Source: Chthoniobacteraceae bacterium
GTDB taxonomy: Bacteria; Verrucomicrobiota; Verrucomicrobiia; Chthoniobacterales; Chthoniobacteraceae
Length of the DNA stretch: 64,000 nucleotides
Direction of reading: 5' to 3'
Assembly (NCBI GenBank): GCA_037190965.1
Contig: JBBCKI010000048.1
Span: 10,297-74,296 of the forward strand
Shown here: piece by piece, positions 506 to 28,880 of the stretch
Numbering within the stretch: position 1 is the stretch's first letter
How the letters are laid out: the number at the start of each line of letters is the position of its first letter
Notes under the pieces: generated by a model
Database searches by the model: none
Told to the model about the DNA's origin: nothing
What the model saw: only the letters and a program-made list of their open reading frames with translations
Program-made: the position numbers and the translations under genes

Positions 506-940
506 TTACTTGCTCTCCTGACTTGCTGCGCTCTTACGGGCCCGGGCCGGCTTGGCGGCTCCCGATTTTGCCCGCTTTCTGCTCTTGGCTTCGCGCGTTT
601 GAATTTCGATCTCGTCGGTGAGGATGATCCTGATGTGTGAGGAACGCTTCAGGATTGGACCGGCACTGCCACGAGCCTTCGGCTGCGACCGCTTCAAGGA
701 CGGACCTTCACCAACGGTGGCCTCCTTGACGACGAGCGTATCGACACGCAAGTTGGCGTTGTTTTCGGCGTTGGCGACTGCGCTCTTGAGCGTTTTCGCG
801 ACCAGCACGGCCGCTTTCTTCGGACTGAACGCAACGATGTCCAGCGCCGCCGCGACGGGCAGGCCCTGAATTTCGCGCGTCACCTCCCGAGCCTTGAAGG
901 CCGAAATGCGCGCATACTTGTATGTCGAATGAATCTGCAT
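506..940 (-). CDS. rplV: 50S ribosomal protein L22 with basic C-terminal tail
   Basis: The 144-aa ORF MQIHSTYKYARISAFKAREVTREIQGLPV...SHIRIILTD is L22-like and sits directly upstream of rpsC. The extra C-terminal segment is K/R/A-rich. Confidence 0.93.
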   Translation of the reverse strand: MQIHSTYKYARISAFKAREVTREIQGLPVAAALDIVAFSPKKAAVLVAKTLKSAVANAENNANLRVDTLVVKEATVGEGPSLKRSQPKARGSAGPILKRSSHIRIILTDEIEIQTREAKSRKRAKSGAAKPARARKSAASQESK

Positions 941-952
941 GTTAGTTGAAAT

Positions 953-10203: not shown

Positions 10204-10617
10204 ATGAAGAGCCTGAAAAATATTTGCCCGCTGTTGCAAGTCGCAGACCTGGATCGTTCACGGGAGTTCTACACTCAAAAGCTGGGATTTCAGGAGACAT
10301 GGAAAGATCCGGGCGGCTTCACCATCCTTTGCCGGGATGAATGCCTTCTTTTCATCTCCCCCAAGCAGCGCGAAGTCGACCTGCGGAATGCGACGGCCCG
10401 CCTGACCAACGACGGTTACGCGAATTACGATCTCCACATCCACTGCTTCACGGGAAGCCTCGACGCGCTCTGGAAAGAATATAAAGAGGCAGGCGTGGAG
10501 ATGGGGGCCTCCTTTGTCAATGGCCCCGTCACCCGGGACTACGGAGTGAGGGATTTTGCGGTAATCGATCCCGACGGGTATGACCTCGTCTTTGGGGAAT
10601 CCATTGAACCCGCGTAG
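10204..10617 (+). CDS. VOC/glyoxalase-bleomycin resistance family protein
   Basis: The sequence MKSLKNICPLLQVADLDRSREFYTQKLGF...DPDGYDLVF shows a typical glyoxalase-fold pattern. The track ORF begins at 10177. Confidence 0.8.
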   Translation: MKSLKNICPLLQVADLDRSREFYTQKLGFQETWKDPGGFTILCRDECLLFISPKQREVDLRNATARLTNDGYANYDLHIHCFTGSLDALWKEYKEAGVEMGASFVNGPVTRDYGVRDFAVIDPDGYDLVFGESIEPA

Positions 10618-25610: not shown

Positions 25611-28600
25611 CTAGGCAAGTGCCGCCTGGGCTGCCGCGAGGCGCGCGACGGGCACACGGTAAGGCGAGCAGCTCACGTAGGTGAGGCCCAGCTTGTGGCA
25701 GAACTTGACGGAATCGGGATCGCCGCCATGTTCGCCGCAGATGCCCAGCTTGATGCCGGGGCGGGCCTTGCGGCCCTTCTCGGAGGCGATCTCCATGAGC
25801 TGGCCGACGCCGGTCTGGTCGATCGTGGCGAAGGGGTTCTTCTTCACGATTTCCAGTTCCGCATAGTGCGGCAGGAACGAGCCCGAGTCGTCGCGGCTCA
25901 TGCCCAGCGCGGTCTGCGTGAGGTCGTTGGTGCCGAAGCTGAAGAACTCGGCGGTCCCGGCGATTTCGTCCGCCGTGAGCGCGCCACGAGGCACTTCGAT
26001 CATCGTACCGACGAGGTACTTGATCTTCACCTTCTGTTCCTTCTGCACTTCGTCAGCCACGCGGCGGACGATCTCCACCTGAATATCGAGCTCCTTCTTG
26101 AAGCCGACGAGCGGGATCATCACCTCGGGGTTCACCTTCACGCCGCTCTTCTGCACTTCGGCGGCGGCCTCGAAGATGGCGCGCGCCTGCATCTCGGTGA
26201 TCTCGGGGAACGAGATCCCAAGACGGCAGCCACGGTGGCCGAGCATCGGGTTCATTTCATGCAGCTCGTGAACGCGCTTGGCGATCTTCTCGGCGGGCAC
26301 TCCCAGCTTCTCGGCCAGCGCGCTCTGGGCGGCGTGGTCGTTGGGCAGGAATTCATGCAAGGGCGGATCGAGCAGGCGGATCGTGGCAGGCAGGCCTTTG
26401 AGCGCCTTGAAGATGCCCACGAAGTCGCCCTTCTGGAACGGCAGGAGGCGTTTGACCGCCGCCTTCCGGTCGTCGTCCTTGTCGGCGAGGATCATCTCGC
26501 GGACCACGTCGATGCGCTCGCCCTCGAAGAACATGTGCTCCGTGCGGGTGAGGCCGATGCCGCTCGCGCCGAAGGCGATTGCGTTCTCGACCTGTTCCGG
26601 CGTGTCGGCGTTCGTGCGGACCTGGAGCTTGGTGGCTTTCGCGCACCAGTCCATGAGCTGGACGAAGTTCTTGTAGGTGCCGCCCTTCTTGGCAATGGCG
26701 TCGTTCTCGATGAGGCCCTGGATGACTTCCGAGGCCGCCGTCTTGAGTTCGCCGGCGTAAACCGCGCCGCTGGTGCCGTCGATGGAGAGGTAGTCCTCGC
26801 CTTCGCGGAACACCTGGCCGTCCACGGTCATTGTCCGGGCAGTGTAGTCGACCACGATGGCCGCAGCGCCGCAGACGCAGACTTTGCCCATCTGACGGGC
26901 GACGAGCGCCGCGTGCGAGGAGACCCCGCCGCGAGCGGTGAGGATGCCTTCGGCGGCGATCATGCCACGGAGATCTTCCGGGGAAGTCTCCACGCGAACG
27001 AGGAGCACTTTCTCGCCCTTGGCCGCAGCGGCAGCCGCGCGGTCGGCGTTCACATAGATCTTGCCGGTGGCCGCGCCCGGGCCCGCAGGCAGGCCGGTGG
27101 CGATCACCTTGCTGTTCTTGACGGCGGTGCGATCGAAGATCGGCGCGAGCACCTGCTCAAGCTGGTCAGCCGGGACGCGATGCACGGCGGTCTTCCAGTC
27201 GATGAGCTTCTCCTTGACCATCTCGACAGCGAAGCGGACGGCGGCGACGCCGGTGCGCTTTCCGTTGCGGGTCTGGAGCATGAAGACAGTGCCGTCCTGA
27301 ATGGTGAACTCGAAGTCCTGCACGTCCTTGAAGTGGGTCTCCAAGGTCTTGCGGATGCGGTCGAGCTCGGCGTAAGCCTTCGGGAGCTGCTTCTTAAGGT
27401 CGGCGACGGGCTCCGGCGTGCGAACGCCCGCCACCACGTCTTCGCCCTGCGCGTTGATGAGGAATTCTCCGTAGAACACCTTCTCGCCGGTGGCCGGGTC
27501 ACGCGTGAAGGCGACGCCGGAACCGGAGTTTTCGCCGGTGTTGCCGAACACCATCGCCTGCACGTTGACGGCCGTGCCCCACTCGTGCGGGATGCCGTAC
27601 TTGCGGCGGTAGACGATCGCGCGATCGTTCATCCAGGAGCCGAACACGGCACCCACCGCGCCCTTGAGCTGCGCCCACGGGTCGTTCGGGAAGTCCTTGC
27701 CGGTACGCTCCTTAACGAGCTTCTTGAATCGGGCGACGAGTTCGCGGAAGTCGTCGGCGCTCAGCTGCGCGTCGGAGAGTTCGTGGTTGCCGTAGCGTTC
27801 GTCCTTAAGGTGCTCGATCACCGTTTCGAACGGTTCGTGATCTTCGCTCGGGAGCTTCTGCACGCCGAGAACGACGTCGCCGTACATCTGGATGAACCGG
27901 CGGTAGCAATCCCAGGCGAAACGCTCGTTCTTGGTGGCGGCGGCAACCGCCTGCACCGTCTCGTCATTGAGACCGAGGTTGAGAATCGTGTCCATCATGC
28001 CGGGCATCGAATCGCGCGCGCCGGAGCGGACAGCGACGAGCAGCGGCATCTTGGAGGTGTCGCCGAACTTCGTCCCCATGATCTTCTCCATGTTCTTGAC
28101 GCCGGCTTCCACCTGCCCCTGGAGTTCCTGGGGATAGGTGCGCTTGTTGTCGTAGAAATAGGTGCAGACTTCCGTGGTGATGGTGAACCCGGGAGGCACC
28201 GGCAGGTTGATGCGGGTCATCTCGGCGAGGTTCGCGCCCTTGCCGCCGAGCAGCGCCTTCATCGTTCCGTTCCCGTCGGCCTTGCCTGCGCCCCAGGTGT
28301 AAACGTACTTATTCTTGCGGGCAGTCGGCTTGGCTGCTGGCTTGGCGACCGGCTTGGCGGCTTTGACCGCTTTGACTGCCTTGGTAGCTGGCTTCACGGC
28401 TTTGGCTGCGGGCTTGGCTGCTGGCTTCACAGGCTTGACTGCCTTTACCGCTTTGACAGCCTTCACCGGCTTCACGGCCTTCGCCGCTTTGGCGGCCGGA
28501 GCTTTTTTGGCGGGAGCCGCTTTGGCGGCCGGTTTCACAGCCTTTGCTGGTGCCGCCTTCTTCGAGGCGACCTTCTTGGGAGCCGCCTTAAGAGCCTTCA

Positions 28601-28634
28601 CGGCCTTAGGGGCTGACTTCGTTTTTTTGGGCAT
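25611..28634 (-). CDS. ppdK: Pyruvate, phosphate dikinase with ~105-aa lysine/alanine/proline-rich N-terminal extension
   Basis: The canonical PPDK core runs from [31 protein letters not shown]. The catalytic His region [15 protein letters not shown] and the C-terminal [10 protein letters not shown] are present. Residues 1-105 consist of [10 protein letters not shown]-type repeats. Confidence 0.93.
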
Positions 28635-28667
28635 AATATTTCGTGGTTTCGAGGGTCCGGCCTTTGT

Positions 28668-28880
28668 CTAAGCCGGTGTGAGATTTTGTGCTTCCGTCAG
28701 CACTTTGGTGATGGCTCCGGTAAAGTCGCCAATCCCCGTGCTGGGGATGATGATGGTGTTGCGCCTTCCATGCGCTTCTTCGCAGATCCGCAAAAATTGT
28801 CCGCGATCATTCTCGCGGAACTCGACGGTAAGATGCTTCCGTTCAACCTGAAATTCTTGTTTGGCGATAACGTGGTCCAT
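28668..28880 (-). CDS. PUR-alpha/beta-like (DUF3276-type) single-repeat nucleic-acid-binding protein
   Basis: In the 70-aa ORF, the segment VERKHLTVEFRENDRGQFLRICEEAHGRRNTIIIPSTGIGDF follows the PUR repeat pattern. Compare the eukaryotic [21 protein letters not shown], quoted from memory. Confidence 0.65.
   Translation of the reverse strand: MDHVIAKQEFQVERKHLTVEFRENDRGQFLRICEEAHGRRNTIIIPSTGIGDFTGAITKVLTEAQNLTPA

Follow-up and report, generated by a model that had tools for sequence, protein, structure and literature searches.

Why should an enzyme of central carbon metabolism begin with about a hundred residues that look like the tail of a histone? The question is raised by the pyruvate phosphate dikinase (PPDK) gene, ppdK, of a Chthoniobacteraceae bacterium (Verrucomicrobiota; GenBank assembly GCA_037190965.1), which lies in the 64,000-nucleotide (nt) stretch of contig JBBCKI010000048.1 from position 10,297 to 74,296 of the forward strand. 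This whole stretch is called the window here, and positions are counted from its first letter. The gene occupies the minus-strand open reading frame (ORF) 25611-28634, starts with ATG and encodes a complete PPDK of 1007 residues, the first 108 of which consist almost entirely of Lys, Ala, Pro and Val. With confidence slightly better than even, it is proposed that this is a normal, complete PPDK bearing a disordered polycation of the histone H1/AlgP type, which would act as an electrostatic tether to a polyanion of the cell. The proposal draws on sequence comparison, a structure model and the precedent of better characterized tails.

The enzyme and its tail

Pfam profiles recognise in the 1007-residue ORF the three-domain architecture of PPDK, all above their cut-offs: the ATP-grasp domain PPDK_N (PF01326, residues 127-410, 195 bits), the swivel domain PEP-utilizers (PF00391, residues 541-623, 66.9 bits) and the TIM barrel PEP-utilizers_C (PF02896, residues 655-1004, 268.6 bits). 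In an alignment of 38 homologues, H574 of the catalytic phospho-histidine loop (GG.(T/S)SHAA.VAR type) and its flanks are invariant, as are dozens of active-site positions, and both MPGMMDT and TEHMFFE are found. The core is 51-57% identical to distant bacterial PPDK genes and is matched over its full length (E = 0 to 1e-280) by the canonical PPDKs of Clostridium symbiosum (1KBL/1DIK), maize (1VBG), Flaveria (5JVJ) and Trypanosoma brucei (2X0S), with which it has the three domains and the catalytic His loop in common. From this core identity and the end-to-end structure match, PPDK activity (phosphoenolpyruvate (PEP) + AMP + pyrophosphate (PPi) <-> pyruvate + ATP + phosphate) is inferred.

The solved PPDKs (873-876 residues; C. 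symbiosum, maize and Flaveria) align only from query residue 108-119 onwards, where their own residue 2-8 falls, so that the first ~108 residues (~107 of them extra) extend an enzyme that is complete without them. A solved bacterial PPDK begins 2-8 residues ahead of its first beta-strand, and none of the canonical PPDKs has a polycationic tail. Plant PPDKs carry transit peptides, which are removed. The public record P0121 (NCBI-sourced) is the same protein of 1007 residues, tail included.

The sequence-only reading of this locus had described a basic Lys/Ala/Pro/Val tail, of histone H1 or AlgP type, in the PPDK reading frame. Frame and composition stand: the core starts with KYVY at residue 109, and the 108 residues ahead of it include 38 Ala, 33 Lys, 15 Pro, 13 Val, 3 Thr and 2 Ser but neither Asp nor Glu; their net charge is +34. 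Basic residues are mostly spaced 3-4 apart, in irregular repeats containing 4 KPAA, 1 KPVA, 3 AAKP and 9 KAVK motifs. Membership of a histone family is not supported: searched alone against Pfam (E up to 10), the tail gave a chance match only (Peptidase_S8_N, E = 3.4) and left HC2 (PF07382) unmatched, and on the evidence of these profiles it is H1-like in composition only, outside the H1 and Hc2 families. AlphaFold2, run with a 38-sequence alignment, assigns to residues 1-106 a per-residue confidence (predicted local distance difference test, pLDDT) of 30-35 and no secondary structure, the first strand being residues 111-115 (YVYTW). One Leu and no Ile, Phe or Trp are found among the 108 residues, no helix is predicted, and the tail is predicted to be intrinsically disordered.

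Such stretches are rare in this genome, and that on PPDK exceeds what chance would give. When the entire 4.2-Mb assembly (59% GC) was scanned in six frames, a K/A/P-rich segment of 30 residues turned up in nine ORFs only. The PPDK stretch (~114 residues) surpasses the others in length, and a stand-alone H1-like protein of 110 residues alone comes level with it. Among ORFs of at least 200 residues, PPDK is the sole gene with high GC at third codon positions and a Lys-rich N-terminal tail.

Start site and translation of the tail

Apart from the ATG at 28634, six in-frame start codons are available within the tail, all of them GTG (codons 12, 33, 54, 57, 69 and 80). The last of these sits at codon 80, so that translation would take in 29 residues of the tail or more wherever it began. 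The earlier claim that part of the tail must be made is thus upheld; its start-free stretch before KYVY also exists, with the correction that the GTG lies 29 codons upstream of K109 and leaves 28 start-free codons, instead of 30 and 29. The N-terminal motif M-[PA]-[KT]-K-x-K-[SK] is kept across genera while the interior of the tail varies, which makes the ATG at 28634 the likely start. It could be objected that this start is mis-called and that translation begins at one of the six GTGs, leaving only a short remnant. We consider this very improbable, as all six encode Val within the KAV/KPV repeats, the MPKKTKS opening at the ATG recurs from genus to genus and the interior does not, and close relatives with few or no internal GTGs (L002 has none) retain an open frame from that ATG onwards. 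Even initiation at the last GTG would still give a 29-residue tail of charge +10.

The leaders of 12 relatives show no obvious Shine-Dalgarno sequence and are followed by A-rich codons after the ATG; no obvious Shine-Dalgarno sequence was seen in the 33-nt leader of the window's ppdK either. The predicted mRNA fold leaves its start region free of pairing, and the stability of this fold is not below that of shuffled sequences (z = 0.39). Codon use differs between the two parts of the gene: AAA accounts for 11 of the 33 Lys codons of the tail (33%) versus 5 of the 64 of the core (8%). This relaxed usage could reflect either a young sequence made by slippage or a slow 5' translation 'ramp'. GCA/GCT and CCA are also over-represented in the tail relative to the core.

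Distribution within the phylum

In a sample of 30 loci from 16 families of the same order, 29 PPDKs bear a basic N-terminal extension of 16-105 residues, in frame and opening with MP(K/T)KTKS or MATKSKS; the only locus without one is L023 (MSTI-KYVY). Absence or frame disruption in close relatives had been named beforehand as the mark of a non-functional expansion, and the tail survives this check. The tail of one relative from the same family is identical, residue by residue, to that of a database Chthoniobacteraceae PPDK. Among the 120 best database homologues, tails range from 4 to 84 residues, with a Lys fraction of 0.2-0.4 and almost no acidic residues, the shortest forms, present in many, being just MAKATKS or MGKT. 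When 12 genomes of relatives were searched with the tail by itself, the self-match was the sole hit, as filtering for biased composition masks such sequence.

At the level of the phylum (60 genomes), PPDKs of the same class, to which the Opitutaceae belong, have tails mostly of 13-36 residues, and that of the window is the longest seen in its class. One genus of the class with 2-3-Mb genomes, probably Akkermansia-like, has a PPDK starting MSTNS... and no tail. In the other classes the surplus is usually 2-10 residues, apart from one lineage (G073) in which an AKK-rich tail of ~113 residues is found, independent of the former. The tail is no oddity of a single genome; it marks the upper end, in length, of a trait shared throughout the class. 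For annotation, this means that verrucomicrobial PPDKs do possess long N-terminal extensions, which should be kept untrimmed; existing database gene calls already include them.

Two loci depart from this picture. In L048, from a 0.9-Mb reduced genome (G032), the N-terminal extension of ~57 residues (MSKKTVTKNSAESFFTRADGERKLRAERLL...) contains acidic and hydrophobic residues and its K/A/P character is gone. In L097, from an uncultured Verrucomicrobiae (CAVYVH010000001.1), a basic tail (…QKTAAKKSAAKKSSAKATKYVY) lies in an open upstream frame lacking ATG, GTG and TTG, which may reflect initiation at an unusual codon or a fault in the assembly; the same protein has a K-rich C-terminal tail.

Tails on PPDK in other phyla

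Outside the phylum, 80 named PPDK loci from a species-representative genome collection were compared. Short canonical N-termini were found in the sampled Bacteroidales, Bacillota, Planctomycetota, Desulfuromonadales and most Alphaproteobacteria. One clade of Hyphomicrobiales, comprising Rhodoplanes (~150 residues), Pseudolabrys and two uncultured genomes, bears basic tails at the N-terminus; that of Rhodoplanes sp. SY1 (L125, NZ_JBEOMB010000085.1), rich in K, A, P and T, exceeds the window tail in length. Moreover, basic C-terminal tails are present in Ignavibacteriales, Kapaibacterium, Aminicenantes (L108) and a few Verrucomicrobia, some of the latter being tailed at both ends.

A FastTree phylogeny of 106 PPDK cores was used to follow these gains and losses, after four tail calls had been discounted by eye (L135, L141 and L167, with Arg-rich upstream frames, and L132, which is C-terminal). 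Tail presence requires at least eight changes of state on this tree and falls in at least three well-separated clades. The small Hyphomicrobiales clade of L125 nests among tail-less alphaproteobacterial PPDKs, and the planctomycete PPDKs that are sister to the verrucomicrobial ones are tail-less. By this phylogeny, PPDK tails arose independently in several phyla, at either terminus.

Slipping length and constant charge

Length and composition of the tail behave differently in evolution. Within a single cluster of 90% identity, tails of 56, 63, 64, 68, 75 or 78 residues are found, all in frame and with both ends conserved. The DNA of the window tail contains imperfect tandem repeats of 9, 12, 15 and 18 nt with 70-92% matches (Tandem Repeats Finder). 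Cluster variation and repeats together indicate that tail length evolves by in-frame slippage. No internal motif is conserved, and overall lengths extend from 15 to 150 residues.

Composition, in contrast, is held. Pooling the 98 tails of at least 15 residues (4,593 residues in total) gives 28.3% Lys, 27.8% Ala, 11.0% Pro and 2.7% Arg, with Asp and Glu together at 0.24%, against 12.9% in the PPDK core. A GC-rich base composition disfavours Lys codons, and a single transition converts AAG (Lys) into GAG (Glu). Under these conditions, in a genome of 59% GC, the preference for Lys over Arg and the lack of acidic residues are difficult to account for unless charge is under selection.

What the tail may do

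Since tails are found at either end of the enzyme, on different domains, with no internal motif and with lengths of 15-150 residues, a shared intramolecular role is unlikely. What they have in common is a flexible polycation, of which a tether is the simplest function. The tail would act intermolecularly, tethering by charge and without regard to sequence, and a dimeric PPDK with its two tails (~+68) would be held on a polyanion. The most likely partner would be the nucleoid or an RNA-rich polysome zone, with polyphosphate (polyP) granules as a possible one; nucleic acid, be it nucleoid or RNA, is favoured over polyP. With PPK1, PPK2 and a pyruvate kinase encoded in the genome, polyP is at hand as a partner, and PEP and pyruvate are linked by another route besides PPDK.

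A largely neutral origin has also to be considered, in which selection for an A-rich, unstructured initiation region seeds a few Lys codons and slippage lengthens or shortens the resulting low-complexity run, which is tolerated and has no role for the enzyme. We hold it to be rather unlikely, in spite of several features that it would account for: the relatives' leaders without Shine-Dalgarno and their A-rich first codons, the unpaired start region, the 9/12/18-nt repeats that allow quick changes of length, the relaxed codon use and the many relatives bearing merely MAKATKS or MGKT. Drift at 59% GC should add Arg, Glu and Asp, whereas the pooled tails are nearly acid-free and Lys outnumbers Arg in them tenfold. 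The whole class keeps extensions of at least 15 residues, no other large enzyme of the genome has a comparable N-terminal tail, and the C-terminal PPDK tails of other phyla lie beyond any initiation constraint.

The same use of either terminus weighs on the two explanations that see in the tail a device for PPDK itself or an address of another kind. An action on the enzyme, as a solubility aid or 'entropic bristle', in dimer or tetramer assembly, or in response to polyP, nucleic acid or PPi, would suit a disordered, highly charged region, and it has a precedent in the histidine ammonia lyase of Trypanosoma cruzi, which binds polyP via a lysine-rich C-terminal region and is inhibited by polyP (PMC8561398). 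PPDK structures, however, put the two ends on distant and different domains, and the spread of 15-150 residues with no internal motif kept speaks against a common mechanism, so that we judge such action distinctly unlikely as the main function; a regulatory or solubility role is possible in a form compatible with the tether. A targeting or encapsulation signal, for a microcompartment, the membrane or export, would be a natural guess where a cytosolic enzyme is extended at its N-terminus, and microcompartments are common in the Planctomycetes-Verrucomicrobia group. It is nevertheless hardly credible here: the tail has no hydrophobic core or amphipathic helix, related lineages carry C-terminal versions, and no microcompartment genes were seen beside ppdK.

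Several observations count against the electrostatic tether. Catalysis, and perhaps fitness as well, can do without the tail, judging from lineages whose PPDKs have 4-7 extra residues or none; it is short or absent in the probable Akkermansia-type genus, in L023 and in many database homologues. The abundance of AAA codons (33% vs 8%) fits a young slippage sequence under weak selection, and conservation of the first 6-7 codons may mean no more than that leaders lacking a Shine-Dalgarno sequence require an A-rich, unstructured initiation region. Furthermore, the survey of other phyla covered PPDK loci only and gives no figure of enrichment relative to other proteins.

If the electrostatic tether is accepted, a possible benefit would be to place PPDK where RNA and DNA synthesis and tRNA charging release its substrates PPi and AMP. 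It is speculation that PPDK was tagged because its ATP-forming direction uses PPi and AMP, both of which are left over from transcription, replication and tRNA charging. An extended scenario, which is quite unlikely as a whole, would have PPDK parked on the nucleoid/polysome phase, possibly together with a co-transcribed PUR-like protein, salvaging PPi and AMP to ATP on site, an arrangement that would have evolved repeatedly across phyla; as an abundant dimer with two +34 tails, PPDK might also compact the nucleoid and link this to metabolism. If true, this parking would amount to a spatially organised step of nucleotide salvage. More generally, should the tail place PPDK on nucleoid, RNA or polyP, it would offer a simple example, open to experiment, of how bacteria organise central metabolism in space without membranes, and the use of PPi and AMP would be one reason why PPDK in particular carries the tag.

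Gene neighbourhood and other basic tails of the genome

The features of the locus are collected in Table 1.

Table 1. Features of the ppdK locus, in window coordinates
Feature	Coordinates	Strand	Basis
Lys/Ala/Pro/Val N-terminal tail, residues 1-108	28311..28634	-	Sequence, composition, AlphaFold, alignment of solved PPDKs
ppdK ATG start codon, opening the M-P-K-K-T-K-S motif	28632..28634	-	Start motif kept in relatives; A-rich codons; unpaired fold
Canonical PPDK core, residues 109-1007 and stop (nucleotide-binding, phospho-histidine swivel and PEP/pyruvate domains)	25611..28310	-	Pfam, structure matches
Imperfect 9/18-nt tandem repeats in tail (KAV/KPV units)	28425..28497	.	Tandem Repeats Finder
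Further 12- and 15-nt repeat arrays in tail	28327-28362, 28402-28427, 28552-28589		Tandem Repeats Finder
33-nt spacer / 5' leader between PUR-like gene and ppdK, A/C-rich	28635..28667	-	Sequence, scan, relatives' leaders
70-residue PUR-repeat-like (PurA family) gene, predicted ssDNA/RNA-binding	28668..28880	-	PF04845

The PUR-like gene, which scores 31.8 bits with PF04845 (cut-off 25), stops 33 nt ahead of ppdK, and both lie on the minus strand. The pair recurs in 16 of the 30 order-level loci (L001, L003, L004, L007, L008, L013-L015, L018, L019, L021, L025-L027, L029 and L030) and in five further ones (L092, L096 and L098-L100), three of them named Chthoniobacterales/Terrimicrobiaceae and two only Verrucomicrobia/Verrucomicrobiae. 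It is also present in L048, on the single contig of its 0.9-Mb genome, so that the neighbour is kept there despite the altered PPDK extension. The PUR-like gene was not seen upstream of ppdK in Opitutaceae loci or in those of other phyla. A second, distant copy exists in the window's genome (G000:C32:19897-20076). A scan of the spacer for sigma-70 promoters and terminators found neither, which is a weak result, as the promoter type may differ.

Outside the window, the stand-alone protein of 110 residues (G000:C19:8068-8400, minus strand; MAIKAAPKKPASKAKAPAKK...) is made almost entirely of K, A and P; in size and composition it resembles the PPDK tail, and it is a candidate nucleoid protein of H1/Hc2 type, although the HC2 profile gives it only 11.5 bits (E = 0.32; cut-off 40). 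An origin of the PPDK tail by fusion with this gene was set aside, given the continuum of 4-108 residues formed by the relatives' tails and the local slippage repeats.

Inspection of the other sequences found RpoD with an N-terminal K/A/P/S region of ~70 residues (G000:C2:68147-70129, plus strand), a Ku protein with a basic C-terminal tail (G000:C35:3564-4766, minus strand), a protein with two winged-helix-like repeats linked by a K/A/P segment of 65 residues (G000:C68:15519-16325, minus strand) and a KdsB-like CMP-KDO synthetase with a basic C-terminal tail of ~25 residues (G000:C1:29643-30473, plus strand). Several of the K/A/P-bearing proteins, as read from sequence, are thus DNA-associated (RpoD, Ku, the H1-like protein), as the winged-helix-like one probably is. 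Within the window, the basic C-terminal tail noted earlier on ribosomal protein L22 is indeed present, as an end of ~30 residues (…TREAKSRKRAKSGAAKPARARKSAASQESK) on an L22-like ORF at 509-952 (minus strand); the filter used did not return S12, which had been named alongside it.

Comparison with known systems

Polycationic disordered tails are known from proteins that handle DNA and from a few that position granules. As far as the literature searched goes, what appears to be new is their class-wide and convergent presence on an enzyme of central metabolism; no account of a PPDK with such a tail was encountered there.

In Pseudomonas, AlgP (AlgR3) and PhaF carry, like PPDK, a long disordered Lys/Ala/Pro(/Val) region with a Lys every 3-4 residues, and in both cases this repeat region is joined to a folded part that serves another purpose. 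AlgP attaches to DNA through its KPAA domain, which is located on polyP granules and needed to space them (PMC9239181), while the homologous KPAA region of PhaF tethers polyhydroxyalkanoate granules to the nucleoid (as summarised in PMC9239181) and binds mRNAs (PMC12818456). These regions are C-terminal, however, and follow a phasin or helical domain, whereas the PPDK tail is N-terminal and borne by a metabolic enzyme of 900 residues. AlgP has 25 perfect KPAA units and the PPDK tail is less regular, and low-complexity sequence cannot show homology.

The chlamydial proteins Hc1 and Hc2 and the C-terminal domains of eukaryotic linker histones are likewise Lys/Ala/Pro-rich, disordered and poor in acids. 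They differ from the PPDK tail, which is fused to an enzyme and has neither an HC2 match nor a globular H1 domain. Chlamydiae and verrucomicrobia both belong to the Planctomycetes-Verrucomicrobia-Chlamydiae (PVC) group.

HupB and topoisomerase I have Lys-rich tails similar to those of Ku. Actinobacterial Ku proteins bear Lys-rich tails of the PAKKA type (PMC3553676), low-complexity Lys/Ala/Pro repeats of variable copy number that confer non-specific affinity for DNA. Ku, HupB and topoisomerase I already act on DNA, which PPDK does not.

Also related to the proposed tether are tails serving as a sequence-independent address on a protein or enzyme that does not handle DNA. FrzCD of Myxococcus xanthus binds the nucleoid via an N-terminal basic tail (PMC5716589), and Caulobacter Ppk1 needs a positively charged C-terminal tail of 22 residues for its localisation (PMC3806658), the address being the nucleoid in the first case and polyP/chromosome-linked sites in the second. 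Both tails are short, whereas that of PPDK has 108 residues and is repeat-like; and Ppk1 makes the polyanion itself, while PPDK has no polymeric substrate.

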